Part shown: positions 1-20,827 of the stretch, piece after piece
How positions within the stretch are numbered: the first letter of the stretch is position 1
Layout of the letters: every line of letters starts with the position of its first letter
NCBI GenBank assembly: GCA_016699365.1
Contig: CP064973.1
Location: 139,920 to 203,919, forward strand
Length of the DNA stretch: 64,000 bases
DNA from: Candidatus Nomurabacteria bacterium
GTDB lineage: Bacteria; Patescibacteriota; Minisyncoccia; Phycocordibacterales; UBA9973
Direction: 5' to 3'
The notes under the pieces: generated by a model
What the model was told of the DNA's origin: nothing
What the model saw: only the letters and a program-made list of their open reading frames with translations
Databases searched by the model: none
Made by a program: the position numbers and the translations under genes

Positions 1-1387
1 TAATTGTCATAAATTCAGCAGTATGTCTTGCAGGTTCAACATTATTAAAAATATCATCCGCTTTTTCTGCAATTACACTTGGCGCGAATGGCATAAACTC
101 GCTTCTTTTCAATCTTTTATTCAAAATATCATTCACATCTTTATTTCTAGGATCTGCTACGATTGTTCGAGCACCCAAGGCTCTCGGTCCAAATTCCATT
201 TTCCCGTCAAAAATACCAACGATAGATCCTTCTGCTACTAAACCAGCCACCACCTCCGCTGAGTTTTCAAGGGTACTGTATTTTCTTCCTTTGTTTTCTA
301 ATATTTTTTCAATAGTCTTATTGTCTGTGTGTGTTCCAAAATAAACATGCTCTAACGGATTTTGCTCAGTTCTCGCGCTCTTTACTTCACTAGTATTATT
401 TAGGTACCAAAGAGCAGAACCCAGCACAAGTCCTTCGTCACCCATCGCTGGTTGTATAAAGATATGTTCAATTTTGTTTTTTTCAACTAATCTTTGATTT
501 AATTTTACATTTGCAAAAACTCCACCCGCGAGACAAAGCGATGTGTGTGGATTTTTTTCAAGCAACACCTGCACATGACTAACCATGAGTTCTTCCAATA
601 GTGCTTGTGCAGCAGAAGAAATTTCTTCTTTTGAAAATCCTTCTATTACTAATACCTTGATTTCTTGCATCATTTTTTTATATGGTGCTCGACGAAAATG
701 CATTCCTCCATTAGTATTCCATACCAATGTCTTTCTCATTCGATCTATTAACACGTCAGGGCTTGCATATGCAGCAAGTCCGACAATTTTTCCTTCGTGT
801 TGATTTGGCTTAAATCCCAGCCCTTCAGTAATTGCGCCATAAAAAGTACCAAGTGATTCAGGAGAATCACCTCTTACAAGTCTTTTCCATTTTCCATACT
901 TTACAGAATATGCAGTATGAGAAAGAGTGTCTCCAAGCGCATCACACGTTACAACAAGAGCCTCACTTTTGCCGGAAAAATAATACGCTGAAGCCGCGTG
1001 CGCCAAATGATGGTCGCAAAAAAATATTTTTGCCTGAGGACAAAATGACTTTTTGAATTTTCTTACTTTCAAATCCTTTTTGAAAGAATCAAACATGTTT
1101 AAAAAATGGCCAATAAAAGCTTTAGGTTTCCAAATTTTATATGAACTTAAGAGTGACCACTTTCGTATTGCATAATGAACAGCACTTAGATGCGAGATTG
1201 TCATAACATCTATATCTTTACCTGAAATCCCCGCCTCTTGCACTACAAAATCTATTGACTGGTACGGCCAACCCCAATAAAATTTCTTTCTATTTATGCG
1301 TTCTTCCGAAACACATGAAATAACCACACCATCTTTTAAGATAGCTGCGGAAGCATTATGCCCGTCATGGATTGAAAGTATTATCAT
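1..1387 (-). CDS. Carbamoyltransferase, NodU/CmcH family. N-terminal about 460 aa are in the window; the C-terminus runs off the window start.
   Basis: Own translation of the minus strand from the ATG at 1385-1387 gives MIILSIHDGHNASAAILKDGVVISCVSEERINRKKFYWGWPYQS..., then ...HHLAHAASAYY..., ...LAGGVFANVKLNQRL..., ...PAMGDEGLVLGSALW... and ...EFGPRALG... These are typical of NodU/CmcH O-carbamoyltransferases. It is absent from the ORF track because there is no in-window stop. Its start overlaps the stop of the downstream glycosyltransferase (ATGA). Confidence 0.8.
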   Translation of the reverse strand, partial: MIILSIHDGHNASAAILKDGVVISCVSEERINRKKFYWGWPYQSIDFVVQEAGISGKDIDVMTISHLSAVHYAIRKWSLLSSYKIWKPKAFIGHFLNMFDSFKKDLKVRKFKKSFCPQAKIFFCDHHLAHAASAYYFSGKSEALVVTCDALGDTLSHTAYSVKYGKWKRLVRGDSPESLGTFYGAITEGLGFKPNQHEGKIVGLAAYASPDVLIDRMRKTLVWNTNGGMHFRRAPYKKMMQEIKVLVIEGFSKEEISSAAQALLEELMVSHVQVLLEKNPHTSLCLAGGVFANVKLNQRLVEKNKIEHIFIQPAMGDEGLVLGSALWYLNNTSEVKSARTEQNPLEHVYFGTHTDNKTIEKILENKGRKYSTLENSAEVVAGLVAEGSIVGIFDGKMEFGPRALGARTIVADPRNKDVNDILNKRLKRSEFMPFAPSVIAEKADDIFNNVEPARHTAEFMTI

Positions 1388-2520
1388 ATTGATATAAAAG
1401 ACTGTATTTTAGGTGCTTGCTTAATCTTTTCGTGAACGTACATTTTGGCACGTGCCACCACGTCACCTACATTACCGTCCTTGTTCTTTATCCTCTCCAC
1501 AATTTCCTTGAGTGATTGCGAGAAGTTGTGCTCATCAAAAAACCAACCACGATTTAATTGCTCTCCAATACTATCACGTAATCCCCCCACAGGAAAAGCT
1601 CCCACCAAGACTCCGCACAGCATGGCTTCAAGTAATGAAAGACCTAGTGCCTCAGAACGTGATGGTTGGATATATAAATCAGCAAAATAATAATACGACC
1701 ACACAGCATCATGATTAACTGCTCCGACAAAGTGAACCCTATCATGAATATTTAGTTCTTTACACCTATCTTTTAATTCTTTCATCATGGAACCTTCACC
1801 AACAATGACCAAATGCGCACGAGTGTCTTGAGTTGAAAAAGCTTCGATGAGTAAATCAATACCTTTTTCTTTTTCCAAGCGAGATACAGTTAAGAGTGTC
1901 ATTGATTCATCACTGATACCAAGTTGTCTTTTTATTTCTACTGATTTTAGCTTTGAAAATTCTGGGATATGTTCAAAGGTTTGGGGAGTAAAAGAATGAA
2001 TTGATTCTTCTTTTATTTTTAAATAATTTTTTGCATATTCAAAACTATCACGACTAATTGTCATAGCATGATCAATTCTTCTTCTTACCACAAGCTCAGA
2101 AAGCACAACGTACCAGTACCTCGCCTTGCTTCCAGTTTTTTTTGCCCACACTCGATTTAGTCCGTTAATAAATATACACACCTGAAATCTTTCTTTCTTA
2201 AAAAAGTTGACCCACCACAAGAGTGCTGCATCTGCTGCAACAACAAGATCAGGAATAAATTTTCTTTTTACAATAAAAATAATCGCAACAATGCCTAGAA
2301 AAAAATCTGAGAGCGGACGAGCGTGTTGGAATGGGAATTTTATGACTTTACTTGTTACATTTTTTGAAATAACTTTATCACCTGAAACTGGACCAACTTG
2401 TAAAAAATGGATGACATTATTTTCAGGATCAAACCCATCACGGTTAAGACGCCTGAGGACTTCTTTTGAGTCATGGAGTGAGAAGCCACGCCAATCGTAA
2501 GCAAGGATTAGTATTTTCAT
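1384..2520 (-). CDS. Glycosyltransferase, GT4/GT1 (GT-B fold)
   Basis: 378 aa with the C-terminal motif EALGLSLLEAMLCGVLVGAFPVGGLRDSIGE (the E-x7-E nucleotide-sugar-binding signature of GT4 enzymes). Confidence 0.8.
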   Translation of the reverse strand: MKILILAYDWRGFSLHDSKEVLRRLNRDGFDPENNVIHFLQVGPVSGDKVISKNVTSKVIKFPFQHARPLSDFFLGIVAIIFIVKRKFIPDLVVAADAALLWWVNFFKKERFQVCIFINGLNRVWAKKTGSKARYWYVVLSELVVRRRIDHAMTISRDSFEYAKNYLKIKEESIHSFTPQTFEHIPEFSKLKSVEIKRQLGISDESMTLLTVSRLEKEKGIDLLIEAFSTQDTRAHLVIVGEGSMMKELKDRCKELNIHDRVHFVGAVNHDAVWSYYYFADLYIQPSRSEALGLSLLEAMLCGVLVGAFPVGGLRDSIGEQLNRGWFFDEHNFSQSLKEIVERIKNKDGNVGDVVARAKMYVHEKIKQAPKIQSFISI

Positions 2521-2562
2521 ATAATATTCTTAATAGTATCAAACTTTTCAATCTAATTATAC

Positions 2563-3273
2563 TTGTCAAAAATATCTGCTCGTGATATAAATACAATCAC
2601 AATCATGTCTTCACCTGATAAAAACATTCAAATATTTGGTATCCACAACTACGACGAATATTGGAAAAACAGAAAGAATAAAAATCGAACCTACAAGACG
2701 GATATACACCGCATTCTTGTTGAGCTTGTTGTAAAACATACACCTCAAAAATCAAAAATTTTAGATTTAGGTGTCGGACCAGGACATCTTTTCAAAGAGC
2801 TCCAAGAATTGAAATTTGATATGTATGGAGTTGAAATTTCTGAGGAAGCCTTTGGTCTGTATAATTTTCCTTCAGATCAAATAACAAAACATGATCTCCA
2901 AAAAGGCATCCCTACTATTACTGCCAAGCCATTTAAAACAATCATTGCGAGCCATATCATTCATCACATGCGTGAGCCAATCTCTTTTATTCATCAAGCA
3001 CGTGAAAACTTAGACACGGGTGGTATTTTTATTGTCGCAACTCAGAATATTTCATTTATATTGTACCGATTAAAGTATTTATTTTTTGGTGAATTTCCAA
3101 AGGTAAGTTTTGGACATATAAATTTCATTAGTCCATATGAATATCGAGAAATTCTTAAAAAGTCAGGTTTTGAAATTATTGACATACGCACAACTGGTAG
3201 TCATACATTTTTAAACAAAATTTTTCCGTTCTGGTTTTCTGGTACTTTATTCTTTGTGTGCAGAAAAACCTAG
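2563..3273 (+). CDS. Class I SAM-dependent methyltransferase
   Basis: 236 aa with motif I LDLGVGPGHLFKEL and post-I acidic residue YGVEISEEA, a Rossmann methyltransferase pattern. Confidence 0.7.
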   Translation: MSKISARDINTITIMSSPDKNIQIFGIHNYDEYWKNRKNKNRTYKTDIHRILVELVVKHTPQKSKILDLGVGPGHLFKELQELKFDMYGVEISEEAFGLYNFPSDQITKHDLQKGIPTITAKPFKTIIASHIIHHMREPISFIHQARENLDTGGIFIVATQNISFILYRLKYLFFGEFPKVSFGHINFISPYEYREILKKSGFEIIDIRTTGSHTFLNKIFPFWFSGTLFFVCRKT

Positions 3274-3879
3274 TGTCTTAAGAAGTGATTCCTCTTGTAG
3301 TTTTTCGTACACCAAACGATTTGGCGTACTATGCTCTAAATAATCAATATCAACAAAAAAGAGTTTTTTTGTATCTTTATTTTTATACAGCATATTTTTT
3401 AGCTTGATATCTCCGTGGACAAAACCAGCACCATGCAACAGATTGAGCATCCTAATTGCATCTCTAGCTATAAATTCCCTATCGTCATCTTGTAGTAAGT
3501 GAATCTCTGGTGACCAAAAATCTTCTAAGTACTCCATTGCGATAAAACCCTTTATTTGTGTTACTTGTGGAAAAAAAATGCTTACCTCTTGGGGTAAATT
3601 TTCAAAAGTATGGATTTGTTCCTCTGTGGTAGGATGATTTCTTCCTGAAACAAAATTATACATTGAAGAAAAAGGATTTCTTAGTTTTAGAAAATATTTT
3701 TTATTATCCGTACGCGAAGTTGCCTTATAACAAAAATGAGAAAACGTATACCACTTCTTTACTATCGAAACATTGTGAGTTCTTATTAAATTAAAAATAA
3801 CAAAAATCACTACTGGGAAATACCCCAAAACAATCGAAGTCCTGTTAAGTAACGAGAAAAAATGTTTAATAAAAATCAT
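3247..3879 (-). CDS. Protein-kinase-like fold protein, Kdo/WaaP (lipopolysaccharide kinase) family-like, with an N-terminal TM segment
   Basis: LHGAGFVHGDIKLKNMLY (HGD catalytic loop) followed by LFFVDIDYLE (DxD). Its 3' end overlaps the convergent methyltransferase by 27 nt. Confidence 0.55.
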   Translation of the reverse strand: MIFIKHFFSLLNRTSIVLGYFPVVIFVIFNLIRTHNVSIVKKWYTFSHFCYKATSRTDNKKYFLKLRNPFSSMYNFVSGRNHPTTEEQIHTFENLPQEVSIFFPQVTQIKGFIAMEYLEDFWSPEIHLLQDDDREFIARDAIRMLNLLHGAGFVHGDIKLKNMLYKNKDTKKLFFVDIDYLEHSTPNRLVYEKLQEESLLKTLGFSAHKE

Positions 3880-3885
3880 ACATTA

Positions 3886-4533
3886 TTATTTCTTTGCGAC
3901 AATAAAGTACCCAAGTGGAAATGGTTGTTTTCTTTTCATCCCAGATGGAATTAGTGTATCAAGTAAAAGCGCGAGTGAATTAAAAATAAGTTTAACAGGC
4001 CATATTAAGAAAAATGCATTGAGCGCATATGCACACACACTAAATCTATCACCAATTTGTTCAAGTAACTCAATTTTTAAATTAGACTCTTCTAGTGCTT
4101 TTTCAAACCCTTCTTTAGTAAGTCTGCCGAAATCCCGAGGCTCGGGCATACAATTGACTCCAAATGGATTTGAAATCAGCACACAACCACCATCTTTAAG
4201 TACACGTCTACATTCTACTAAGACATGATTAGTTTTTTCTGCAATATAAAGATTATGAAATAAAAGAACAGTATCGACACTTGAATCCTCATACGGAAAT
4301 CTTTCATTAAAATTAAGAACCTGCGACACTCCTTCTTTTTGAACATAGTCAGTTCTTATGTGTACAATCTCTTTTGGTAAATATTTGGCATATGTGAGAT
4401 TACCGCCTGAACCAATATCAAGTACTCGCCCTTTTATATATCGAGAAGCCTTAAAAACTTCTTGTTGAAATAGTATCCTGTACAGAGTCTTTCCGGAGAT
4501 TGTCTCTCTTAAATAGTCACCTATAAGCATCAT
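3886..4533 (-). CDS. Class I SAM-dependent methyltransferase (Methyltransf_11-like)
   Basis: VLDIGSGGNLTYAKYL motif I and VLKDGGCVLIS motif. Confidence 0.7.
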   Translation of the reverse strand: MMLIGDYLRETISGKTLYRILFQQEVFKASRYIKGRVLDIGSGGNLTYAKYLPKEIVHIRTDYVQKEGVSQVLNFNERFPYEDSSVDTVLLFHNLYIAEKTNHVLVECRRVLKDGGCVLISNPFGVNCMPEPRDFGRLTKEGFEKALEESNLKIELLEQIGDRFSVCAYALNAFFLIWPVKLIFNSLALLLDTLIPSGMKRKQPFPLGYFIVAKK

Positions 4534-5273
4534 CTTCGAACTTTAGCATATATTCCAAAAAATGTTGAGAGTTTAGCCTTAAATGCTAATTTGTCAGTTT
4601 TACTATCAATCGAAATTCTAGGAAGTGAAAATAGATCAGATTGTTGATCCACAAACCCATTTATTGTTGTGACCGCACTACTATATCCTGCTTTCTGTAC
4701 AAAATCTATTTCTCTTTTACTAAACTTTCCACGTGGATATGCAAAAGAATTCTCACTCTTACGTGCAACTTCATTCATCAGTTCATTTACTGAAAGATTT
4801 ATTAATTCTCGATGAGTCATTGCATGTGAACCAATTTCAACTAATGGATTCTTAGATAATAGCACTATTTCATCTTCTACCAGTAATTTACATATTACCC
4901 CGTCAGATGTCTTAATTTCATTTGAATCAACACGTTTTGGCCAAAATAAAGTACTACAAATATTTCTCTTTTCAAACTCTACAAGTGCCGTAGTTAAATA
5001 ATCACGATGGCCATCATCACACGTTATGACAACTACTTTCCGTAATGATTCTTTATTTTTAATTTTTTGTACCATCTGGGATTGTGTCAAAAATACGTAT
5101 TCATTTTTCTTTAAGTAATCCAACTGCCACTCAAAATCTTCCAAAGGAACATTAAAGAACGCGTTTGGTAATTCAAAAGAGTGGTACATTAAAATTCTTG
5201 CCTTGTTATCGGTCAAGAAATAATCAAATAATATACACACTTTATAAAATAGTATTCTCAAAATAGATTTCAT
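4530..5273 (-). CDS. Polysaccharide deacetylase (NodB homology domain, CE4)
   Basis: VVVITCDDGHRDYLTTAL (the TFDDG-type motif 1) and H-rich downstream motifs. Overlaps neighbouring genes by 4 nt. Confidence 0.7.
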   Translation of the reverse strand: MKSILRILFYKVCILFDYFLTDNKARILMYHSFELPNAFFNVPLEDFEWQLDYLKKNEYVFLTQSQMVQKIKNKESLRKVVVITCDDGHRDYLTTALVEFEKRNICSTLFWPKRVDSNEIKTSDGVICKLLVEDEIVLLSKNPLVEIGSHAMTHRELINLSVNELMNEVARKSENSFAYPRGKFSKREIDFVQKAGYSSAVTTINGFVDQQSDLFSLPRISIDSKTDKLAFKAKLSTFFGIYAKVRR

Positions 5274-6316
5274 ATGTACATAGAAAAATTATCCATCAAT
5301 AGTTTCAGACTATGCTTTTTGCCAATCTCAACCAGTGTATCTTGCTCTACATCACAAGAAACAATACACTTTTCAAACATACGTGCTACATCCTCAATTT
5401 CCAATGACTGTATTCCGATTTCTTTTCTTATGCCTTCAGGTAGTTCATCCAAAAAACTTGTATTGTATACAAGTGGAACGCATCCGCAATATGCAGACTC
5501 CCAAATTGTCTTATCAAAACTACCAGATGAAGTCAGGTTTATACAAAATCTATGTGCCGAATATATTTGAGGTAATTTTGTATGATCTACTGAATCAAGA
5601 AATGTAATCTTGCTTGTGAGATTATTTTTATTGATTGTTTCTATCAATGCATCTGTATACTTTTTATCGATATCGCCATCTATGGGTCCAACTAAATTTA
5701 GAGTAAAATCTAAAGTCGAATTCTTGCTAAAAAGCTTTGTGAATGCATTAATTATTATATCTACATTCTTAATTTCGGAAATTCGACCTACATACAAAAA
5801 AGAATGTTGCTTTCTTTCTATATTCCCTACAGGCCGAAACAGATTTTCGTCTATCCCCACAGGCATTTTGATTGAATTTTTAAATTTTGAAGTATACGAT
5901 CCTGAGGAAGTGTAAAAAACTTTTTGAGCCATAAAACCCGCAACTTGTGTCTTCCACGAACCCAGTTTATGATTTCGCCACAAAAACACTTCTTTACACA
6001 AAAATCTCCAAATCACTCCTCCTAAAAGTACGTACTCTTCGTTCATATGAACAAAGACTTTCTCGTAATTTTTCCTTTCTGCGATAATGTATTTAAAGAA
6101 ATTAAAAATATATTTTATTTTAGAAACACCGCTCTCTTTTCCAAGTGTCAGAACCTTAACATTTAACGGGAAATCAAACTCACCTTTTTTAAGACATATA
6201 ACAGTTACAAATTCATATTTTTTTGAAAACTCTATTATCCACGAATGAAAAAAACCCAATATTGGATCATTTCTATCCACCGTCTGAGTCAGTATGAGCA
6301 GTCGATTTTTTTTCAT
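5270..6316 (-). CDS. Glycosyltransferase (GT-B, GT4-like)
   Basis: 348 aa with C-terminal ...WESAYCGCVPLV... nucleotide-binding region. Lies in a glycosyltransferase cluster. Confidence 0.6.
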   Translation of the reverse strand: MKKNRLLILTQTVDRNDPILGFFHSWIIEFSKKYEFVTVICLKKGEFDFPLNVKVLTLGKESGVSKIKYIFNFFKYIIAERKNYEKVFVHMNEEYVLLGGVIWRFLCKEVFLWRNHKLGSWKTQVAGFMAQKVFYTSSGSYTSKFKNSIKMPVGIDENLFRPVGNIERKQHSFLYVGRISEIKNVDIIINAFTKLFSKNSTLDFTLNLVGPIDGDIDKKYTDALIETINKNNLTSKITFLDSVDHTKLPQIYSAHRFCINLTSSGSFDKTIWESAYCGCVPLVYNTSFLDELPEGIRKEIGIQSLEIEDVARMFEKCIVSCDVEQDTLVEIGKKHSLKLLMDNFSMYI

Positions 6317-6320
6317 GACG

Positions 6321-6977
6321 TTATTTTCTTATCGGGTTTCTGGCAACAAATAAAAACATATGAGCAAATGAATACTTAAAAAGCCACGAAAGGAGCCAAA
6401 ACTTTTTTGAGACAATTGGAATAATCTCTACATCACTAAAATGTTTTTCCAAGATCGACCTAAACTCTTTATAGGTAAAATGATTTATGTGAGTTGGGTC
6501 TTGTAATGGTGTATGCTTTTTAATATTGAATATGAAGCGTATCTTTGACTGAAAACTATAAGCAAATGGAACAGAACCTACAAATAAACCGTTATCTTTC
6601 AAAACAAAGGAGGCTTTTTGGGTTATATTTTCTGGATAGTATAAATGTTCTAAAACTTCAGCTGCAACAACAACGTCAAATGTCTTTGCTTGTAAGCCCC
6701 AATCCCCATTCAGGTCAACCTGTCGCACTTTTATAGGAATAAGTGCCTGAGCACGATCTAATGCCTCTTGATCAATATCTAAGCCAAGCACGTTGTTCCC
6801 TTCAAAAAAATATTTTGTTAAAGCCCCATCACGACACCCAATGTCAAGAACATCTTTACCTTTTTCTATAACATCACGAAGAAATGGCCCTCTTTCTTGT
6901 TCCATGGTGATAAAATATTTTCCCCTACGATTAATGTTATGTTCGCTGTAAATCTTTTGAAGTGAATTAGATTCCAT
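6321..6977 (-). CDS. Class I SAM-dependent methyltransferase
   Basis: VLDIGCRDGALTKYF motif I; VLGLDIDQEA; VVVAAEVLEHL. Confidence 0.7.
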   Translation of the reverse strand: MESNSLQKIYSEHNINRRGKYFITMEQERGPFLRDVIEKGKDVLDIGCRDGALTKYFFEGNNVLGLDIDQEALDRAQALIPIKVRQVDLNGDWGLQAKTFDVVVAAEVLEHLYYPENITQKASFVLKDNGLFVGSVPFAYSFQSKIRFIFNIKKHTPLQDPTHINHFTYKEFRSILEKHFSDVEIIPIVSKKFWLLSWLFKYSFAHMFLFVARNPIRK

Positions 6978-6990
6978 AATTAATTTAAAA

Positions 6991-8142
6991 TTATTTATTA
7001 TAACTTATAGCTTTCTGTATATTCATTAATAAGACCTTATTATACTCTAATCTATCCCTATACTCATATTTATGTGGATTGTTAATCAGGTATTCTTTTG
7101 CTTCCTGATATATTTCAAATTTATCTAATAAATAGTCCGTTTTTTGAAAAAAACAAAGACTGTCTTTTGGCGAACAAATCCAACCACTCCTTCCTTCAAT
7201 TATAACTTCTGATGCAATTCCTACATCACTGGCCAAAACTGGAGTACCACAAATCAATGATTCAATAATTGTCAGACCATAACCCTCAAATCTTGAACTT
7301 ATCCAAAATAAATCAGCTATTTTATAATATGGAGCTAAGTCATTAATCCATGGTATAAAAAGTACACTTGATTCAATCTTTAGTCTTTTAACCTTCTCTT
7401 TTAGAAAAAGACTTTGTGATCCTGAGCCAATTATAACCAATCCAATCTTTTGTGGGTATTTTAAATCTAACTTGGAAAAAACATCTAGTGCCATGGAAAT
7501 ATCTTTTTCTATTTCTAATCTCGAGGCCATAAGAATCAAAAATCTTTCTTGTTTAAATAAATCTTTTTTTTGAATTTTTACATTGTTTAAAATTTCATAT
7601 TTTTTTACATCTATAAATACAGGGACAACGTCGATAGCGGCTGTAGTAATTTTTTTTTCTCTCAAACTATTCATTATTCGCTTTGAAACACATCTTATAG
7701 AATCTGCCTGTCTAATTACAAAATATGCAATAATAATCCTTATGTACTGTAAAAAAGTATTTTTAAAAAATGGAGAAAATAAGTCAACATGAATCTGAAT
7801 ATTAAGTGCACAACCTGTGATCTTTGATACAATAAACCCTACAAGGCCACACTCAAAAGGATCTTGTGTCGTAACAACGACATCTTTAAATTTATCTTTG
7901 GGTATATTTTTAATTATTTTAATACTTATAATAACCGCATCAATAATACAAAGTATTTTAAAAAAGGATTTCGTTGGGTAAAGTATAGTATTATTAATAT
8001 ACTGCTTGGCAAAAACATCCTTTTTTAAAGTAAATATAACAGCATGGTATTCATCAAAAGATTTTGCAATGCTTAAAACACGATCTCTGGTAGAACTCTC
8101 AGTAAATAATCTTCTTTCTGTGCCTATTGCTACAACAATCAT
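6991..8142 (-). CDS. Glycosyltransferase family 4/1
   Basis: EGYGLTIIESLICGTPVLASDVGIASEVI motif. Confidence 0.75.
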   Translation of the reverse strand: MIVVAIGTERRLFTESSTRDRVLSIAKSFDEYHAVIFTLKKDVFAKQYINNTILYPTKSFFKILCIIDAVIISIKIIKNIPKDKFKDVVVTTQDPFECGLVGFIVSKITGCALNIQIHVDLFSPFFKNTFLQYIRIIIAYFVIRQADSIRCVSKRIMNSLREKKITTAAIDVVPVFIDVKKYEILNNVKIQKKDLFKQERFLILMASRLEIEKDISMALDVFSKLDLKYPQKIGLVIIGSGSQSLFLKEKVKRLKIESSVLFIPWINDLAPYYKIADLFWISSRFEGYGLTIIESLICGTPVLASDVGIASEVIIEGRSGWICSPKDSLCFFQKTDYLLDKFEIYQEAKEYLINNPHKYEYRDRLEYNKVLLMNIQKAISYNK

Positions 8143-9140
8143 AAAATTATTCTTTCAAAGTCAGTAATAATATCTTCCCAGGTATTAATGTATCTACAAT
8201 TTAAAATATTTTCCCTTAAAGAGGAGTAAATTTTCGGGTCACATATTTTTGTTATACCATCTTTTATAGAATCTAAGTTAAAAGGTTCAATTAAAATACC
8301 CATATTCATAAACCGAATATTTAATCCTGTATGTCTAGTCAAAATGAATGGTTTACCAAAAGAAATACCCTCAAGCACTATATTGGGATTTACCTCCGAA
8401 AAAGAAGGAGCCGCAACAGCGTAAGATGTTTTAATTTGTTCTTGTATATCTTGGTGAGTAGAGATCTTATCAAAGATTTCTACTCCAACACCTTCTTTAG
8501 AAACTTCAGCCACAGCTTGTGTAAACATTGCATTATTTTTTAACTTTATTTTGCGAGAAGAAAGTATAATCTTTTTGTTTTGACTAATACCACAATCATT
8601 AACTCCACTAAAATAATTTTCAATAAGAACAATCTTAAAATCAGGAATCTTGTAATTTTTTAATAAAAAATTACCAAACCACATAGAATTAACAACTACT
8701 TTAGTTGATTTTTTTAGAGTGTATTTTGTCAAACCCTTTATAATATTTTCTTTCACAGAAAAATCATTTTTATCATAAAAAGACTCAAGGGTTATATTTT
8801 GACCTGTATGTTCAATATGATATTCCCAAAGAAAGTCACCACCTATTCTAATAAAGAATTTTTTATTAAACACAAAGCAAGCAATCGCAGTAGGGAATCC
8901 AACACTAACCGCATCTAATAAAATTACCCTATCTGCCCATAAAACTTTAGGTAAAATTTTTATAAAAAAACATATATGTCTAATTAAAGAAGGCATATTT
9001 CTTTCCCAGGTAAAACTAGAAACTTTCACACGGTGCCCTCTTGAGCGAAAACCTTCATTTAAATTAAAGGCATACTGAGCAGGCCCTCCGATTTCTGGAG
9101 GATAAATTCCTGTTGCGATAAGAATGGATTTTCTGTTCAT
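8139..9140 (-). CDS. Glycosyltransferase (GT4-like)
   Basis: N-terminal MNRKSILIATGIYPPEIGGPAQYAFNL (GT4 N-domain) and C-terminal EVNPNIVLEGISFGKPFILT. Confidence 0.6.
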   Translation of the reverse strand: MNRKSILIATGIYPPEIGGPAQYAFNLNEGFRSRGHRVKVSSFTWERNMPSLIRHICFFIKILPKVLWADRVILLDAVSVGFPTAIACFVFNKKFFIRIGGDFLWEYHIEHTGQNITLESFYDKNDFSVKENIIKGLTKYTLKKSTKVVVNSMWFGNFLLKNYKIPDFKIVLIENYFSGVNDCGISQNKKIILSSRKIKLKNNAMFTQAVAEVSKEGVGVEIFDKISTHQDIQEQIKTSYAVAAPSFSEVNPNIVLEGISFGKPFILTRHTGLNIRFMNMGILIEPFNLDSIKDGITKICDPKIYSSLRENILNCRYINTWEDIITDFERIIL

Positions 9141-9194
9141 TATGTTATGAGAATACTACAAGAAATACTTCTGCGCCAGGTATCAAAAATAGGA

Positions 9195-10358
9195 TTATTT
9201 AAATACCTCTTTCATCTCCCCTGCTATCAGATTCCAATCATATTTCTCAATCACCATCGACTTCGCATTTTCTATAATGCGATTTTTTTGTTCAGGATTA
9301 TTTTCAAATCTCATTATTGCTTCTGCAATACTTTTCGGGTTTTCTACTTCACAAAAGTATCCTGTCTCTCCATCTTTCAAAAAGTCTGGTATCCCACCGA
9401 CAGATGTTGCAACTACTGGCAAACTTATTGCCATAGCTTCTAGAAACGAATTGCCCAAGCCTTCTGAAAGTGAAGGTCTCACAAATACATCTGAAATTTT
9501 CAAATACTTTGGCATTTCACTGTGTGGTACATACCCGAGAAAAATAACCCGAGCTTTTAGATGTAAACTGTCAGCTTTTAGCTTTAAATCATTCTCGAGT
9601 GGGCCGTTGCCTAGCACCAGAAAAATAAAATTCTCTGGCAAATATTTTAGTGACTCGATTATATCCCCCACTCCGTTTTTCTTTACGAGACGGGACGTTG
9701 TAATAATCACTTTTTGAGATTTATTTATACCCAATTTTTCCTCTAAAGTCGTGATCTCTCTTAGATCATAATTTCTCGTAAATAAAGATACGTCCACTGC
9801 ATTTGGAATGACCACCGGAGTATCTCGAAATCCCATACTTTTACCGAAATCTGCTAGGTATGTAGATATAGCCTGTATGGTGTCAGCATGGGTAAAAATA
9901 CGCTTCCAGAGTGGGTATACGAGCGCTACACGACGCTTTATGTAGGAAATGGGATCTCCTTCCTGAAGTGTCAAAATGAAGCGTATTTGAGGGTATTTTT
10001 GCTTGAAAAACAAAGCTCCGAACCCAGCATAGTTGGCCATAATCGCCCACATACTTTGGAAACATATCTGCTTCTCGAGTCTCTTTGCTTTCATGTACGA
10101 CTGAAATGGAAATAGGTATTTTGAAATCTGAAAAAACACCTTTCCGACAACAGGAATACCCAGTAGATACGGCCCTACTCTGTGCACTGTAATATTGCCT
10201 ATTTGTTCAACTCGCTTCCGGTCAGTGCGCATAGTTACCATGAAAAAGCTCGCTTCGTCTTTGCCGATACGATCTGTGATCTCTTTCACTGCGACCTCTG
10301 CTCCCCCGACAAAGTTTGGGTAGTATACAAGCGAGAATATTAGAATCTTTTTATTCAT
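9195..10358 (-). CDS. Glycosyltransferase family 4
   Basis: MNKKILIFSLVYYPNFVGGAEV... and SLSEGLGNSFLEAMAISLPVVATSVGGIPDFLKDGETGY. Confidence 0.8.
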   Translation of the reverse strand: MNKKILIFSLVYYPNFVGGAEVAVKEITDRIGKDEASFFMVTMRTDRKRVEQIGNITVHRVGPYLLGIPVVGKVFFQISKYLFPFQSYMKAKRLEKQICFQSMWAIMANYAGFGALFFKQKYPQIRFILTLQEGDPISYIKRRVALVYPLWKRIFTHADTIQAISTYLADFGKSMGFRDTPVVIPNAVDVSLFTRNYDLREITTLEEKLGINKSQKVIITTSRLVKKNGVGDIIESLKYLPENFIFLVLGNGPLENDLKLKADSLHLKARVIFLGYVPHSEMPKYLKISDVFVRPSLSEGLGNSFLEAMAISLPVVATSVGGIPDFLKDGETGYFCEVENPKSIAEAIMRFENNPEQKNRIIENAKSMVIEKYDWNLIAGEMKEVFK

Positions 10359-10423
10359 AAGAAAAGTATACCCTCGGGTAAGTTTTTTACAAAATAACTA
10401 TTTAATATTAAATGTTTTGGTGC

Positions 10424-10451
10424 TAGACAAAATAAATTTTAGTGATATAAT
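10424..10451 (+). promoter_or_regulatory. Sigma70-like promoter (TAGACA-16-TATAAT) upstream of the esterase gene
   Basis: tagaca at 10424-10429, a 16-nt spacer, and tataat at 10446-10451. It lies about 35 nt upstream of the ATG at 10487 in a divergent intergenic region. Confidence 0.35.
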
Positions 10452-10486
10452 ATAAAAATTATCCTACTTTTTTTAAATAAAAAATA

Positions 10487-11377
10487 ATGAAAAAAATCAC
10501 AATACTCACATTACTTTCTTTAATTACAAGCATGTTCCTATTTACAAACGCACAGGCAGCGTTTGTTCCCTACGAATTAGAGACAATCTCTGACGTATAT
10601 TTTGGCACAGTCGATAGTACAGATCTCTACCTCGATGTAATCCGACCTATCGGTACCGCGTACGAAACTCCCGCTATCATATGGGTACACGGAGGAGGAT
10701 GGTCTGCTGGTACACGCTACCAAGAACCAGGTAGTGAGGCTTACACACTCGCAAGTTATGGCTACGCTATCGTCCCTGTAGACTACCGACTCACACCAAC
10801 AGGCACCCTACCTGAACAAATCCATGACGTTCGAGGAGCAATCCGCTTTATCCGAGCACATGCAGAAGAATACAATATCGATGCAGATCATATTGCAGTA
10901 CTCGGTTCGTCTGTCGGTGGAGCTATCGCTTACATGACAACACTTACAAATGATGATCCATTTTACTTTGGAGAAGTAGGAGGAAACCTAGACGAGAGCA
11001 ACGAAGTCCAAGCTGGAATAAACTTCTTCGGATCACTGTCAGTTGAAAGTATCGGAGAACTCAAACCTTCTCACAGAACAAAACTAGCAGACGCACTCGA
11101 CTGTGCCGATGTACTCACACTCGACTGTGCAGAAGAACTCGAGATCATCGACGTGAACTTACTCGCAAATGCAGGAGATGCTCCACTATATACCTTCCAT
11201 GGCAATGCTGACCTAAGTGTCCCCTACACACAGAGTGTCGAAATGTCAGCCGACATCACCGCACTCGGAGGAATATCTTTTCTCAAGATAATCCCAGGAT
11301 ACGATCATGAAATATCGATGATGAACACACAGATCCCTACCCTAAAAAGATTCTTCAAGAAATATTTGGGGGTGTAA
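10487..11377 (+). CDS. Secreted alpha/beta-hydrolase (esterase/lipase-like)
   Basis: Signal peptide MKKITILTLLSLITSMFLFTNAQA. IWVHGGGWSAGT oxyanion-hole motif and GSSVGG nucleophile elbow (GxSxG). Confidence 0.7.
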   Translation: MKKITILTLLSLITSMFLFTNAQAAFVPYELETISDVYFGTVDSTDLYLDVIRPIGTAYETPAIIWVHGGGWSAGTRYQEPGSEAYTLASYGYAIVPVDYRLTPTGTLPEQIHDVRGAIRFIRAHAEEYNIDADHIAVLGSSVGGAIAYMTTLTNDDPFYFGEVGGNLDESNEVQAGINFFGSLSVESIGELKPSHRTKLADALDCADVLTLDCAEELEIIDVNLLANAGDAPLYTFHGNADLSVPYTQSVEMSADITALGGISFLKIIPGYDHEISMMNTQIPTLKRFFKKYLGV

Positions 11378-11392
11378 AAATTGATTGTCATT

Positions 11393-11421
11393 AAAAAAAT
11401 CTACTTAGAGTAGATTTTTTT
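11393..11421. terminator. Bidirectional intrinsic terminator between convergent genes
   Basis: The hairpin aaatctact-tagag-tagattt is flanked by A and T runs. Confidence 0.5.
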
Positions 11422-11449
11422 AATGTTCCTAAAATATTTAAAAAGATTT

Positions 11450-12535
11450 TTATCTTTCATACACCTCAAAAGTTTTTTGAATCATTTGTTCTTTTGAAAA
11501 ATTACTTTTTACCCTCTCGTGCCCCAGCTCGCCCATTTTTTGTAAAGCAGGTTTATCTGAGAATATTTTTTCTAGGACCTCTGCCCATATTTCAGAACTA
11601 GAATCTCTAGGAATCAACACTCCGACATCACTCGACACTGCTTCAGATATTCCTCCAACATCACTTGCAAGCACTGCGCACCCCTCGGCCATCGCTTCGA
11701 GTATTGTCATTGGGAAACCTTCCCATAGTGTAGGTAAGACAAATACAGAACTTTCTCGTAAAGTTTTTCGTACAAGACTCCCATCGCACTCGCCCATCAT
11801 ATGTACATGTGCGCTCAAGTCCAACTTTTTAATTAATATCTCTAAATCAGGTCTTTGTGCCCCATCGCCTATAATAGACAGTTTCGGTAATTCCACACCT
11901 TTGTTTTTTAAAATATGAAGTGCGCGAATCAAAACTTCTGGTTGTTTTGGAGGAACAAGTCTACCAACAAAAACTATTGAATTTGTTTTCTCTGTAGATA
12001 TGTTGTCCACTATAGTTACGCCGTTATATACAGTAACCACTTTCTCATCTCGAAGTAACAAGAATTTTTTTATATTCTTTCTATCGTTTTCCGAAACAGC
12101 AATAATTTTTTTACAAAATCTAGATGCGATAAATTCTGCAACAATCGCAATTGGCTTTCTCCAGAGCGGAGCGCCTTTTGTAAACGCTATACCGTGAGCA
12201 GTGAAAATTGTTGGGTATTTTCTACCCAGAGCAAGTCTGCCGATAAACCCTGCAAAAGAACTATGAACTGAAATTATTTCAGGATTAAATTCTTTTGCGA
12301 CCACTCTCAAGTCTAGGTATGTTTGCAAAATAGAAAAAGGATTGAATGTATTACCAAGTTTTGAAGATACATACACTTCAAAGCCGTATTTGGTAGCTTC
12401 GTCTACCAAATACCCCTCACCTCCAGTTACGAGCAAGACCTGATCTCCTTTTTCTTTATGACTCAGCAAAAGTTCGTGGAGTACACTCTGCGCTCCACCA
12501 CGTTCTGCTTTTGTGATTAGATATAAAATACGCAT
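11450..12535 (-). CDS. Glycosyltransferase family 4
   Basis: MRILYLITKAERGGAQSV... and EGFPMTILEAMAEGCAVLASDVGGISEAV. Confidence 0.8.
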   Translation of the reverse strand: MRILYLITKAERGGAQSVLHELLLSHKEKGDQVLLVTGGEGYLVDEATKYGFEVYVSSKLGNTFNPFSILQTYLDLRVVAKEFNPEIISVHSSFAGFIGRLALGRKYPTIFTAHGIAFTKGAPLWRKPIAIVAEFIASRFCKKIIAVSENDRKNIKKFLLLRDEKVVTVYNGVTIVDNISTEKTNSIVFVGRLVPPKQPEVLIRALHILKNKGVELPKLSIIGDGAQRPDLEILIKKLDLSAHVHMMGECDGSLVRKTLRESSVFVLPTLWEGFPMTILEAMAEGCAVLASDVGGISEAVSSDVGVLIPRDSSSEIWAEVLEKIFSDKPALQKMGELGHERVKSNFSKEQMIQKTFEVYER

Positions 12536-14583
12536 TAAATTTTATCGAAGAAATATAAACTAACTTCAGGAAAAGATTTTATATTTTTATCTATATAAGA
12601 TACAACTTGCTGACTCTTTTCTATGTTTGGATTGATCGCAAGTCCTTTTTGCGCCCACTCACGAGCAAGATTAAATTTACCTTGATACAAAGACAGGACA
12701 GATTTCATCCAATACCCTTGTGGAATCTCAGGATTCATCTCTATAGCTTTGTCTAATACCAAACTTGCTTCCTCGAGCCTATTTACCCCAAGCAGATTGC
12801 TATACATCAACACATCGGCGTAGTTAAAATGCGCGCGAATATCATTTGGATGACTGTCTAAATAATTTTTGTATTCATTTGCAAATATCTCAAGTTCTTT
12901 TTTGAAGTTTTCTTGGTTTTTTGGATTTTCGATTGACGCTGGATTTTCTGATATTCCTCTTTGGAAATCAGTCGATGTTCTCCAGAGAAAAGAAGGCAGA
13001 TCCATAGGTGAACCAAAAAGTACAGGATACATCGGCAATCTCTTCTCAGCACTTCCAACTGTACGAATAGTTCCATTTGTATGTTCAGCTCGAGCTATAG
13101 GCATAGTCCCAGCGAAAAATGCCCAACCAAAATATCCAATCAAACAAACTGCACCTATATATTTTATATATACAGGAACAGCTAAAGTATGATTACTTTC
13201 TTTATTGTTTTCGATATAAGTTTTACGGTATAGATTTGAAGCTAGTGCAATCATAATCAAAACCGCAACCAGAGATATAGTGGTATCAAAAGCTGTTTGA
13301 AGTTCCGCTAAGTGTCCTAAAAAGTAAATTATCAATATTGAAGCTAAGAGTTGATCATTTTTTTCTTTTGATTTTAGTAACACATAAACTAGTGAACCCA
13401 GTACAACAAAATACACAAGCAGGTAGAAAGACAACCCAATATATCCAGTGTCTACTGCTTGATCGATAAATACATTGTGTGCTCTGTCGAACCAAGCTTC
13501 GTTACCGAAACGCTCTTCTAGAAGTCTATTGTCATAATTTTGTTCAAACCCTCGATCAAAGTTGTCAGTTCCCCATCCGAGCAATGGTCTTTCCTTTATC
13601 ATATTTGCAGATAGTTCCCAGACTATAGGTCTAGCACTTGTTGCCTGACTCAAATAAACTCCTCTTAGATACCCATCTTCAGCCAAGAAAGATCTTATCA
13701 GCACAGCAGAAGAGACTAGGGTTATTACTAGAGCACCCCATATCAGCCCTCTCCTTATCTTTGCACTTGATATTTTTGAACCGAAATAAAAAACTACTAA
13801 AGCAAAAAGTGATATAGCTAAAACATACGCACCCGCACGAGCTTCTCCGACAATCCCCATAGGATTAGTAACCAAATCCACCTGCCCCTTCCAAACCTTA
13901 TGACTTATGATATAAGGGTTTATAAAAAATGCGACAGGCAAAAGTCTATGCCACCACTTTTTTTCACTACTTTCTGTCGAGCGAACAAGGTATATAGAAA
14001 TCAAAAATGCAGCAAACAAATACATTGCAGCGAAAGTCGAGTTACCAAAAGAAAACCCATCCCACAACCTTGTTTTAAATATAAGACCCAATCCTTCCGG
14101 ACCTAGTAGAGATAGTACTGAAAAAATACCTGATGAAACTGCAAAAACCTTCAAGAAACCTCTTTGGACTTCTTCGTCTTTAAATAAATATGACAAGAAG
14201 TAGTAAATCATCACAAGATGAGAAAAGAAAAATATACCACTTACGCGTGCTGCCTTAGACCAAAAAGATATTGATGGATCTACACCGTTTAGACCAGCTA
14301 AAACCAAAACAATAAAATACATAGACAAAACTAAGGCTATAGGTGACTTGAAAAGTTTCACTTCCCTGTTTTTTTTAAATAGAGATATGGCAAATATGAT
14401 AGCCAGGATCTCAATTATAATCATCAGAAAAATAGCCCGGGATGATGTTCCGTTGTACAAATAACCTTTAAATAAAATTATTGGGAAAAGTGCAATAAAT
14501 CCCACCAAAACATATCTGATTAGTTCAAATATTCCACTTTTTAATTGATTTTTAGACATGCTTTTATTATACGCACCATTCAT
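12535..14583 (-). CDS. Polytopic membrane protein with Wzy_C/O-antigen-ligase-like domain and C-terminal TPR repeats (candidate oligosaccharyl/polysaccharide ligase)
   Basis: 682 aa. At least 10 hydrophobic segments are followed by a soluble C-terminal region with TPR-like repeats (...ASLVLDKAIEMNPEIPQGYWMKSVLSLYQGKFNLAREWAQKGLAINPN...). The architecture matches O-antigen ligase family proteins with TPR. Confidence 0.6.
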   Translation of the reverse strand: MNGAYNKSMSKNQLKSGIFELIRYVLVGFIALFPIILFKGYLYNGTSSRAIFLMIIIEILAIIFAISLFKKNREVKLFKSPIALVLSMYFIVLVLAGLNGVDPSISFWSKAARVSGIFFFSHLVMIYYFLSYLFKDEEVQRGFLKVFAVSSGIFSVLSLLGPEGLGLIFKTRLWDGFSFGNSTFAAMYLFAAFLISIYLVRSTESSEKKWWHRLLPVAFFINPYIISHKVWKGQVDLVTNPMGIVGEARAGAYVLAISLFALVVFYFGSKISSAKIRRGLIWGALVITLVSSAVLIRSFLAEDGYLRGVYLSQATSARPIVWELSANMIKERPLLGWGTDNFDRGFEQNYDNRLLEERFGNEAWFDRAHNVFIDQAVDTGYIGLSFYLLVYFVVLGSLVYVLLKSKEKNDQLLASILIIYFLGHLAELQTAFDTTISLVAVLIMIALASNLYRKTYIENNKESNHTLAVPVYIKYIGAVCLIGYFGWAFFAGTMPIARAEHTNGTIRTVGSAEKRLPMYPVLFGSPMDLPSFLWRTSTDFQRGISENPASIENPKNQENFKKELEIFANEYKNYLDSHPNDIRAHFNYADVLMYSNLLGVNRLEEASLVLDKAIEMNPEIPQGYWMKSVLSLYQGKFNLAREWAQKGLAINPNIEKSQQVVSYIDKNIKSFPEVSLYFFDKI

Positions 14584-14593
14584 CCAAAAACAA

Positions 14594-14621
14594 CAAAACC
14601 GCCCCGAAGGGCGGTTTTGTT
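14594..14621 (-). terminator. Intrinsic terminator (palindromic, usable on both strands) after the surface-protein gene
   Basis: The hairpin ccgccc-cgaa-gggcgg is flanked by an A-run and a T-run. Confidence 0.6.
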
Positions 14622-17213: not shown

Positions 17214-18128
17214 CTATATAAGTGAGTATTTTGACCAACGCTTCTCCCCTGTCTTTTTGAGAATATTGTCCTTTACAAGAGCGGTTAATTCACGCTGAAG
17301 TGTCTTTTCGCTACAGTTCTTAACTATAAGAGAAATGTCCTTTACGGTTACTGAGTTATTGTTCTTTAGTGCTAATAGTATTGAATTTCTTCGCTCATTT
17401 TTAATTGCTATATCAACTTTTTTAGATTGACCTGCTTGCTTGTCCTTTTTACTTTCTGTGTTTATGTCTTTTATATTTTTTGTATTAGTGTGTCCTTTAT
17501 AAAAATCGTTTGTTGCAGGACCGGACTGTCCTTGACCATTAGATTTATTTAAAAATATCTTTAGTAGATTATTCTCTTCCGATATTTCAGTAGGTTCACT
17601 TTTAAATTCTTCGCTTGGTCCGAAAGTAAAATTTTTCAAAAAATCAGCTCTTTCTAGATCTAAAGATTTCAATCCTTCTATTGTAAATACAGACTTATTA
17701 TTTTGAATTCTGAGCATAACTAAGTCACTTGAAAGTTTGGTAAGTTCCCGCATTAAAACACTACTGTTCATGGTACCTATAAGTCCAACTATTTGAGATA
17801 TTTCTAGAAAAGAAAGTAGGCTTCTGATTATTTGCTCAGCAGATTCAATTTCAAAGTTTGTCTTTATTGCTGTTTTATTGTCCGTTAGACCAATAGTTTT
17901 TAGAAGGTCCAAAGATGATGTCCTTAATGAACTTTTCATTGGCTCTCCGTCTTCTATGCATTCTGTGACCATATATAAAGCAGTAACTATCTTCTGTGTC
18001 CTTTTAAGCAAAGAACTGGCTTTTGTATTCTGGGCTTTATTTTCAACAGAGAATACAGGAGAACCTATTTCCCCTTCATTTCTGTTTTCTATGTGACTAT
18101 TAGACGAGATGTCCTTTTTAATATCCAT
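17214..18128 (-). CDS. Hypothetical protein with C-terminal winged-helix (DeoR/HTH_11-like) DNA-binding motif
   Basis: C-terminus NSVTVKDISLIVKNCSEKTLQRELTALVKDNILKKTGEKRWSKYSL matches the HTH_11/DeoR-type wHTH pattern. The N-terminal 230 aa have no recognisable motif. Confidence 0.35.
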   Translation of the reverse strand: MDIKKDISSNSHIENRNEGEIGSPVFSVENKAQNTKASSLLKRTQKIVTALYMVTECIEDGEPMKSSLRTSSLDLLKTIGLTDNKTAIKTNFEIESAEQIIRSLLSFLEISQIVGLIGTMNSSVLMRELTKLSSDLVMLRIQNNKSVFTIEGLKSLDLERADFLKNFTFGPSEEFKSEPTEISEENNLLKIFLNKSNGQGQSGPATNDFYKGHTNTKNIKDINTESKKDKQAGQSKKVDIAIKNERRNSILLALKNNNSVTVKDISLIVKNCSEKTLQRELTALVKDNILKKTGEKRWSKYSLI

Positions 18129-20473: not shown

Positions 20474-20827
20474 ATGACCTTCAAACAAAAAGCTGGTATG
20501 GGTGCAGGCATTGTATTCGGAATAATAGTTTTTTTATATGCAATTTTTAGACTTCATGACCTAATATTCGGAATAAATATAAAAGTTGAAGGCATAGAGA
20601 ATGGTATGGTTGTCACAGATCCAAATATACAAATAGATGGTAATGCAAAAAGGGCTAGTTTTGTCACCCTAAATGGAAATGAAGTATTTATATCAAAAGA
20701 AGGAGATTTTAGTGAACCAATAGTACTTTTACCAGGAGAGAATGTGGTATCATTGTATGTGAAAGATAAATTCGGTAAAGACACAACCGAGATATATAAA
20801 GTAGTCTATTTAGTAAGTAATCAATAA
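20474..20827 (+). CDS. Hypothetical single-pass membrane protein
   Basis: 117 aa with an N-terminal TM ([18 protein letters not shown]) and a beta-rich C-terminal domain. Confidence 0.4.

Follow-up and report, generated by a model that had tools for sequence, protein, structure and literature searches.

A probable lipid-carrier surface-glycan locus with a mosaic gene island in a Candidatus Nomurabacteria genome

What would a dense cluster of glycosyltransferase and sugar-tailoring genes build in a bacterium of the candidate phyla radiation (CPR, Patescibacteria), and to what would its product be attached? To our knowledge, the cell envelope of these organisms is essentially uncharacterised. 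The many glycosyltransferases of CPR genomes suggest polysaccharides or a glycosylated S-layer (PMC5220378). The question is raised here by the first 14.6 kb (positions 1-14583) of a 64,000-nucleotide stretch of a Candidatus Nomurabacteria genome (contig CP064973.1, hereafter the window), in which 14 glycan-related genes extend from base 2 to 14583. We favour, with moderate confidence, the view that these genes form part of a locus in which a surface glycan would be assembled on a lipid carrier, tailored in the cytoplasm, moved outward by a Wzx flippase and transferred en bloc to an acceptor, most likely the adjacent surface protein. Our literature search returned no specific prior description of such a locus in CPR bacteria.

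Composition of the cluster and its continuation in relatives

Domains were assigned by Pfam profile searches with gathering cut-offs and subfamilies by NCBIfam models, and genes were compared across the loci of relatives, with tblastn as the means of tracing the gene order (L001, L002/L003, L004-L008, L085, L086, L087, L088, L089, L090 and L091). L085 is a 3.1-kb contig that is 95% nucleotide-identical to window 1-2007. A preliminary description of the window had proposed a contiguous envelope-glycan island, and the profile searches recovered every domain it named in the 14 genes with the exception of the label given to the kinase. All 14 genes, 12 of them on the minus strand, lie at the coordinates listed here together with the surface-protein gene that adjoins them.

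2-1387, minus: O-carbamoyltransferase of the NodU/CmcH/TobZ family, N-terminal 462 of about 554 residues, running off the left window end (Carbam_trans_N 157 bits, Carbam_trans_C 87.3 bits)
1384-2520, minus: GT_a, GT4 glycosyltransferase whose stop overlaps the carbamoyltransferase start (ATG) (Glycos_transf_1 122.7 bits)
2563-3273, plus: MT_a, S-adenosylmethionine (SAM) methyltransferase of the variable module (Methyltransf_23 74.8 bits)
3247-3879, minus: membrane-anchored RIO-like mini-kinase of protein-kinase-like fold, 210 residues (RIO1 25.0 bits, cut-off 22)
3886-4533, minus: MT_b, SAM methyltransferase with a hydrophobic C-terminal tail, translationally coupled to the deacetylase (Methyltransf_11 32 bits)
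4530-5273, minus: CE4 polysaccharide deacetylase (Polysacc_deac_1 37.5 bits, cut-off 23.1)
5270-6316, minus: GT_b, GT4 glycosyltransferase (Glycos_transf_1 43 bits)
6321-6977, minus: MT_c, core SAM methyltransferase (Methyltransf_23 59 bits, Methyltransf_11 53.7 bits)
6991-8142, minus: GT_c, GT4 glycosyltransferase with a low guanine-plus-cytosine (GC) content of 0.285 (Glycos_transf_1 107.9 bits)
8139-9140, minus: GT_d, divergent GT4-like protein (Glyco_transf_4 28.5 bits, exactly at the cut-off; Glycos_transf_1 25.2, below 26.4)
9195-10358, minus: GT_e, GT4 glycosyltransferase (Glycos_transf_1 154.4 bits)
10487-11377, plus: secreted BD-FAE/alpha-beta-hydrolase esterase (BD-FAE 139.9 bits)
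11450-12535, minus: GT_f, GT4 glycosyltransferase, the first gene after the ligase (Glycos_transf_1 118 bits, Glyco_transf_4 75 bits)
12535-14583, minus: putative WaaL/PglL-superfamily glycan ligase with a C-terminal tetratricopeptide repeat (TPR) domain (Wzy_C 52.8 bits, cut-off 31.7, plus TPR)
14652-16658, minus: secreted PG_binding_1 protein, acidic and Ser/Thr-rich (PG_binding_1 43.3 bits)

Start and stop codons overlap by 1-4 bases at five gene junctions, which indicates operons or translational coupling. None of the 20 other open reading frames (ORFs) scanned in the window was glycan-related, all being housekeeping genes or without a family match, and the arrangement is not a chance clustering, since it is syntenic in relatives. 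Homologues of the cluster genes other than the kinase occur in Paceibacterota, Kaiserbacteria, Buchananbacteria and other Patescibacteria. The profile searches and synteny comparison proposed in the preliminary description therefore confirmed its domains and found its genes syntenic: the carbamoyl-, methyl- and deacetyl-type tailoring enzymes carry the corresponding Pfam domains, and the ligase-like protein carries Wzy_C and TPR on a WaaL-like fold. Its count of six glycosyltransferases stands for five clear Glycos_transf_1 members, the sixth (8139-9140) being marginal, at or under the cut-offs.

The window edge cuts the cluster inside the carbamoyltransferase gene, and the cluster extends past this edge, beyond what the window sequence could show. 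Directly after the carbamoyltransferase in L085 stands a convergent gene whose product is 71% identical to the Polysacc_synt (Wzx-type) flippase of L001; by this match, a MOP-family (Polysacc_synt) flippase gene would be located just outside the window. L001 repeats the cluster in its complete gene order, which is followed there by the flippase and then by a Bac_transf initiating phosphoglycosyltransferase (PGT) that passes TIGR03025 (330.8, above 295.55). Bac_transf is present from two genes (L001, L089) to five genes (L088) past the carbamoyltransferase and was also found in L002/L003. The ending GT_a-carbamoyltransferase-Wzx-PGT is common to L002/L003, L088 and L089, and rplJ-rplL come soon after it in L002 and L089. 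The occurrence of Wzx and Bac_transf beside the carbamoyltransferase in relatives points to a flippase-dependent surface-glycan locus that works on a polyprenyl-phosphate carrier, for which such an arrangement is the usual one.

The conserved ligase and its neighbouring surface protein

Homologues of the ligase number more than 350, are uniform in length (655-690 residues) and are 45-57% identical. Their invariant residues include R318, GWG 336-338 and D366-R367-H369-N370, and the loop 316-370 contains invariant Arg and His residues. The AlphaFold model of the window protein (predicted local distance difference test score, pLDDT, 87.5; predicted template-modelling score, pTM, 0.88) has WaaL (7tpg) as its best PDB fold match in Foldseek, with an E value of 9.3e-6 and a TM-score of 0.57 normalised to the target. 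The domain score and the WaaL-like polytopic fold of the model place the protein in the Wzy_C/WaaL-PglL superfamily. Its C-terminal 170 residues are TPR, with a profile that matches TPR proteins. Helix count and the positive-inside rule predict an external TPR domain that shares its side of the membrane with the catalytic loop.

Conservation is much stronger for the ligase than for the glycosyltransferases: its identity is 84% in L086, despite a differing island, and 44-51% in L087, L090 and L091, where no glycan island lies between the ligase and rplJ/rplL. Conservation of the ligase beside an island that varies or is absent marks the ligase as a core gene and the island as an accessory insertion next to it, and such conservation is easier to reconcile with a ligase whose acceptor is conserved than with a polymerase specific for one repeat unit.

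Adjacency of the ligase and the surface-protein gene could be checked in six contexts (the window, L002, L086, L087, L090 and L091), and in all six a PG_binding_1 protein is encoded directly upstream of the ligase. This neighbour is a secreted protein of about 650 residues, with a signal-like N-terminus, an N-terminal PG_binding_1 domain and no detected SLH domain. From residue 111 to the end, the window protein consists of 26% Ser plus Thr, 17% Asp plus Glu and 2.7% Lys plus Arg. These features make it a candidate for a surface or S-layer protein anchored to the wall, and for the acceptor of the glycan. Between the surface-protein and ligase genes lies a strong hairpin of intrinsic-terminator type (14592-14621, minus strand) with a 13-bp stem, 7 GC pairs and a T tail, which suggests a separate transcription unit for the surface protein. 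Upstream of the surface-protein gene, window 17214-18128 (minus strand) encodes a 304-residue protein with no Pfam or NCBIfam match. A gene for 225-304 residues without an assigned family occupies the equivalent position in L086, L087, L090 and L091, and with the surface protein and the ligase it makes up a conserved three-gene set.

Protein O-glycosylation fits these observations because the ligase is conserved against varying glycosyltransferases, its TPR domain is predicted to be external and it always adjoins a Ser/Thr-rich wall-anchored protein. It is known that O-oligosaccharyltransferase genes often adjoin the genes of their targets (PMC3643930), and the architecture of Wzy_C with a C-terminal TPR has been reported for the S-layer O-oligosaccharyltransferase WsfB and for PglL (PMC2943079). 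The conserved pair of ligase and surface protein thus suggests, without proving, S-layer-type protein O-glycosylation.

Tailoring genes in a mosaic island

The carbamoyltransferase carries the motifs HDGHNAS (7-13) and CDHHLAHA (124-131). A full-length, 98% identical carbamoyltransferase, P0001, matches the structures of TobZ, GdmN and NovN end to end with E values of 1e-57 to 1e-61. To judge from the Carbam_trans_N (Kae1-like) and Carbam_trans_C (YrdC-like) domains and these alignments, the window enzyme is a genuine member of the NodU/CmcH/TobZ family, a very large one with at least 7,900 matches in one search. It adjoins GT_a and Wzx in L001, L002/L003, L085, L088 and L089. Whereas it shares the two-domain architecture and the full-length alignment to solved structures with the O-carbamoyltransferases NodU, CmcH, TobZ, NovN and GdmN, it is no NodU orthologue, and here it would act on a lipid-linked surface oligosaccharide, not on a Nod factor or an antibiotic.

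Among the methyltransferases, MT_a has an 86% identical counterpart in L001 and none in L002, and the identity of MT_c to its counterparts is 85% for L001, 68% for L002 and 48-54% for the loci of Kaiserbacteria and Paceibacterota. MT_b has a VLDIGSG motif from residue 37 and a hydrophobic segment at residues 166-191, and its pairing with the deacetylase recurs in L001 and L089. The deacetylase matches PDB entry 6dq3 (E value 2e-7) and has the metal-binding motifs TCDDG at 84-88 (Asp-Asp) and SHAMTH at 149-154 (His-x3-His), which with its domain identify it, at the level of sequence, as a CE4 enzyme. Neither a signal peptide nor a transmembrane-like peak was found in the deacetylase, which is therefore probably cytoplasmic. 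The carbamoyltransferase and the methyltransferases likewise have no signal peptide and, like the deacetylase, no N-terminal transmembrane segment. Carbamoyl phosphate with ATP, and SAM, are cytoplasmic substrates.

The preliminary description had also listed a secreted esterase among the genes of the island. The protein itself is borne out by its BD-FAE score and signal-like N-terminus, and it carries the motifs HGGG, starting at residue 68, and GSSVG, starting at residue 140; its membership in the toolkit is not. The gene was not found in L001, L002 or L086, the three closest syntenic relatives, its GC content is 0.45 against a background of 0.364 +/- 0.031, and it has its own promoter-like site (10424-10451). 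A role as the O-acetyl esterase of the pathway was downgraded on these grounds; the gene looks like a strain-specific insertion and is probably not a conserved part of the pathway.

The kinase is the least ordinary component of the cluster. It belongs to the protein-kinase-like superfamily, with a catalytic Lys, an HxD...N loop, a metal-binding Asp and a bilobal fold. The earlier label of a Kdo/WaaP-like sugar kinase had to be given up: the Kdo score (PF06293) was 20.1, under the cut-off of 21.3, Pkinase reached 26.1 (cut-off 31.7), only RIO1 passed, and fold searches against solved structures listed RIO kinases first as the nearest, not WaaP or KdkA. The family is rare, with only two 90%-identity clusters among 5.8 billion proteins and only 36 representatives at an E value of at most 1e-3 among 1.84 billion. 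In its members, which have about 200 residues, a hydrophobic helix at the N-terminus is combined with a conserved Lys, the loop HGDIKxKN and the metal-binding Asp. Since the chain stops about 30 residues past this Asp (D177 of 210), it is without an activation segment or a C-lobe extension. The minimal fold without activation segment and the conserved Lys, HxD...N and metal-binding Asp are shared with the atypical kinases RIO and Bud32, and its place in a glycan locus is analogous to that of the lipopolysaccharide (LPS) core kinases WaaP and KdkA. It is unlike both groups in its N-terminal transmembrane helix, its length of only 210 residues, its score below the Kdo cut-off and its very rare family. 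The genomic context suggests that it acts on a glycan or a lipid-linked substrate.

Two more specific proposals for the kinase were rejected. The gene order of methyltransferase and then kinase is what we take to be the domain order of E. coli WbdD, which raised the idea of a split methyltransferase-kinase pair that adds a methyl-phosphate cap. WbdD was never listed in searches with the kinase and MT_b sequences, with a kinase profile or in two kinase fold searches, and the resemblance is an analogy only. A Bud32-like partnership with the Kae1-like domain of the carbamoyltransferase was discarded, since L002, L088 and L089 have the carbamoyltransferase but no kinase.

The collinear backbone of the cluster, GT_f-GT_e-GT_d-GT_c-(MT_c)-GT_b...GT_a-carbamoyltransferase-Wzx-PGT, was recovered in L001, L002 and L089 and partly in L088, and the order of its glycosyltransferases is partly collinear in L004-L008. 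The sub-block GT_e-GT_d-GT_c-GT_b-MT_c recurs in more distant lineages, including Kaiserbacteria and Paceibacterota. GT_a, 80% identical in L001, is directly upstream of the carbamoyltransferase in all relatives. The position of GT_b is kept in L001, L002, L004-L008, L088 and L089, and both length and position of GT_d are kept in L001, L002, L088 and L089. A backbone that recurs with its carbamoyltransferase in Patescibacteria relatives also contradicts the earlier view that such chemistry is unusual for a small-genome bacterium. The tailoring genes set on this backbone differ among loci as follows.

Window and L001: deacetylase-MT_b-kinase-MT_a module
L002: deacetylase-MT_b-kinase-MT_a module missing
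L089: deacetylase-MT_b, a glycosyltransferase-sulfotransferase fusion and a Methyltransf_21 protein
L088: a radical-SAM/SPASM enzyme and three methyltransferases

The fusion of L089 is located at 4756-6633 and the radical-SAM/SPASM enzyme of L088 at 4685-5731, and these enzymes indicate that the decoration chemistry is swapped freely on a conserved glycosyltransferase backbone. Identity between window and L001 proteins ranges from 89% for the carbamoyltransferase to 38% for GT_f, and GC content across the cluster from 0.285 (GT_c) to 0.45 (esterase). GT_f is only 36-38% identical in L001/L002, yet 59% identical in L086. L086 shares its frame with the window up to GT_e, which is 82% identical, and then carries a wholly different island with EamA, three other glycosyltransferases, a thiamine pyrophosphate (TPP)-dependent enzyme and an Fe-alcohol dehydrogenase. 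The last two, of which the TPP-dependent enzyme has a phosphonopyruvate-decarboxylase-like architecture, form the island end at 19277-21551 of L086; their presence hints that this island may carry a phosphonate decoration in place of the carbamoyl and methyl set. The island is mosaic and hypervariable in content. No tRNA gene that might mark an integration site turned up when the window was scanned for tRNAs.

Outside the cluster, recA (window 20832-21886) and ftsK (window 18264-20467) are split by frameshifts relative to intact orthologues in L086. The window RecA is 99.6% identical to that of L086 over residues 1-241 in one frame and 96% over 241-352 in another, and the frame of ftsK changes near 20123-20132; both are probably assembly indels and not real pseudogenes. 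Between these genes, window 20474-20827 (plus strand) encodes a 117-residue protein with a Glucodextran_B-like domain, which is kept there in L086, L087 and L090. Further along the stretch, window 41353-44780 (minus strand) holds a class I aminoacyl-tRNA synthetase spread over two ORFs. One (780 residues) has tRNA-synt_1 and then a His_Phos_1 histidine-phosphatase domain at residues 497-666, and the other (358 residues) has the remaining catalytic part and the anticodon-binding domain. Either a domain has been inserted or fused in an unusual way, or the gene is split.

Proposed pathway and competing explanations

In the pathway we propose, the Bac_transf phosphoglycosyltransferase, encoded just left of the window if the gene lies as in relatives, would start the glycan on the polyprenyl-phosphate carrier, and the six GT4 enzymes would lengthen it; with one addition per enzyme, the product would have about seven sugars. 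Tailoring would take place on the cytoplasmic side by the O-carbamoyltransferase, the three SAM methyltransferases, the CE4 enzyme as a de-N-acetylase and possibly the membrane-anchored RIO-like kinase. The finished unit would then be moved outward by the Wzx-type flippase, whose gene is likewise expected just left of the window, and the WaaL-like Wzy_C-TPR protein would transfer it en bloc to an acceptor. For this role the neighbouring peptidoglycan-anchored, acidic, Ser/Thr-rich protein is the likeliest candidate, and the outcome would be an S-layer-type O-glycosylation.

The closest precedents are the gene clusters for S-layer and protein O-glycosylation, namely slg of Geobacillus stearothermophilus, that of Paenibacillus alvei and the 27-kb cluster of Tannerella forsythia. 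Lipid-carrier assembly, an initiating phosphoglycosyltransferase (seen on our side in relatives), glycosyltransferases, SAM methyltransferases and Wzx are common to these and to our locus, and so are a Wzy_C oligosaccharyltransferase with or paired with TPR, a surface-protein gene nearby, conserved ends and a variable middle (PMC2943079, PMC6120980). In the Tannerella cluster, Wzx is accompanied by 5 glycosyltransferases and 3 methyltransferases (PMC6120980). What sets our locus apart from these clusters is a tailoring set with a carbamoyltransferase of NodU/TobZ type, a CE4 deacetylase and the RIO-like kinase, and an acceptor candidate that uses PG_binding_1; its S-layer and glycan are predictions from the genes. 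A likeness is also seen to Wzx/Wzy O-antigen and capsule loci with WaaL, which share Bac_transf (again as seen in relatives), GT4 enzymes, a MOP-family flippase, a Wzy_C membrane protein of WaaL-like fold, a low and mosaic GC content and hypervariable content at a fixed chromosomal site. Our locus differs from them in that it lacks Wzz, a separate polymerase and a lipid A-core acceptor, and its ligase has TPR and is a core gene outside the variable region.

Several observations weigh against the proposed pathway. The flippase and the initiating transferase are not in the window itself, and their place in the locus is taken from the near-identical 3-kb contig and from relatives. The PglL_A motif separates PglL from WaaL (PMC3643930), and in the Pfam scan PglL_A (PF15864) gave no match to the ligase at an E value of at most 0.01, with a model that was built from proteobacterial PglL and is weak for a CPR protein; this leaves genomic context to carry the assignment as a protein O-oligosaccharyltransferase. 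The Wzy_C domain also occurs in some Wzy polymerases. The ligase persists without an adjacent island, so that its donor may come from elsewhere, and what links it to the island is adjacency. A protein or a lipid is an equally plausible substrate for the kinase. The split reading frames of recA and ftsK call for caution on sequence quality, as small errors are possible elsewhere in the window.

As an alternative, the locus could make a Wzx/Wzy-polymerised polysaccharide, such as a capsule, an exopolysaccharide or a secondary cell-wall polymer, with the Wzy_C-TPR protein as the repeat-unit polymerase and the genes for attachment or release elsewhere. The model passed by the initiating transferase of relatives, TIGR03025, is named 'exopolysaccharide biosynthesis polyprenyl glycosylphosphotransferase', a Wzx flippase is present, Wzy_C is shared with some polymerases, and six glycosyltransferases would suit a repeat unit. 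Polymerases, however, normally co-vary with the repeat unit, and the Wzy_C-TPR protein is retained at high identity where the island changes and persists where the island is absent. Its top structural match is a ligase. Neither Wzz/PCP nor a separate polymerase was found in the window cluster, L001, L002, L086, L088 or L089, and no Wzz/PCP, export component or LCP ligase in any of the eight loci examined. We consider a polymer unlikely. If the protein is a true WaaL-type ligase, its acceptor might still not be a protein but a membrane glycolipid (lipooligosaccharide- or lipoglycan-like) or peptidoglycan, a possibility favoured by WaaL as the top fold match and by the missing PglL_A motif, and the strong conservation of the ligase suits any conserved acceptor. 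Yet we know of no such lipid acceptor in this lineage, and the predicted extracytoplasmic TPR together with the invariant adjacency to a secreted Ser/Thr-rich protein indicates a protein partner. CPR genomes have been reported to be without lipid A/LPS biosynthesis (PMC5220378). A non-protein acceptor therefore appears quite improbable to us.

The preliminary description had framed the cluster as a Nod-factor-like or antibiotic-sugar-like toolkit; a toolkit of that kind would act on a chitin-type oligosaccharide or a secondary metabolite. Deacetylase, carbamoyltransferase and methyltransferases do occur together, and a deacetylase that has no signal peptide, as for NodB before export, and is coupled to a methyltransferase resembles the logic of NodB followed by NodS. 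Every test of membership in a Nod family failed, however. The carbamoyltransferase scored 84.9 bits against a cut-off of 1000 for the NodU equivalog (NF041651, nodul_NodU); the best NCBIfam matches of the deacetylase were IcaB/PgaB, all far under their cut-offs, with no match to NodB; and neither NodS, NodC or NodA matches nor an acyltransferase were found in the cluster. Its glycosyltransferases are all GT4, with no GT2 chitin-oligosaccharide synthase among them. The genes adjoin a ligase and, in relatives, a flippase and an initiating transferase of the lipid-carrier type, and no polyketide, non-ribosomal peptide synthetase or aminoglycoside genes are present. The Nod-like framing is thus extremely improbable, and transfer of a tailored, lipid-linked glycan to the surface protein is the explanation that we retain.

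The locus follows the well-known logic of O-antigen and S-layer glycan assembly and opens no new category. A broader proposal, which we put forward tentatively and regard as doubtful in its entirety, is that Paceibacteria-type CPR bacteria have a lineage-wide S-layer-type O-glycosylation built around the triad of the small protein, the peptidoglycan-anchored surface protein and Wzy_C-TPR, with a hypervariable island between the transferase gene and rplJ/rplL that swaps carbamoyl, methyl and sulfate groups, and perhaps also phosphate and phosphonate, between close relatives, and with the RIO-like mini-kinase as an undescribed kinase of lipid-linked oligosaccharides. The locus would gain in interest if its ligase and surface-protein pair represented a glycoprotein system general to CPR bacteria, or if its mini-kinase proved to be a new glycan kinase. 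As it stands, it offers a concrete, testable layout, a conserved ligase and surface-protein pair beside a strain-variable glycan island. Such variability is expected for a structure exposed to hosts and phages, and it could matter for episymbiont attachment and for virus recognition.

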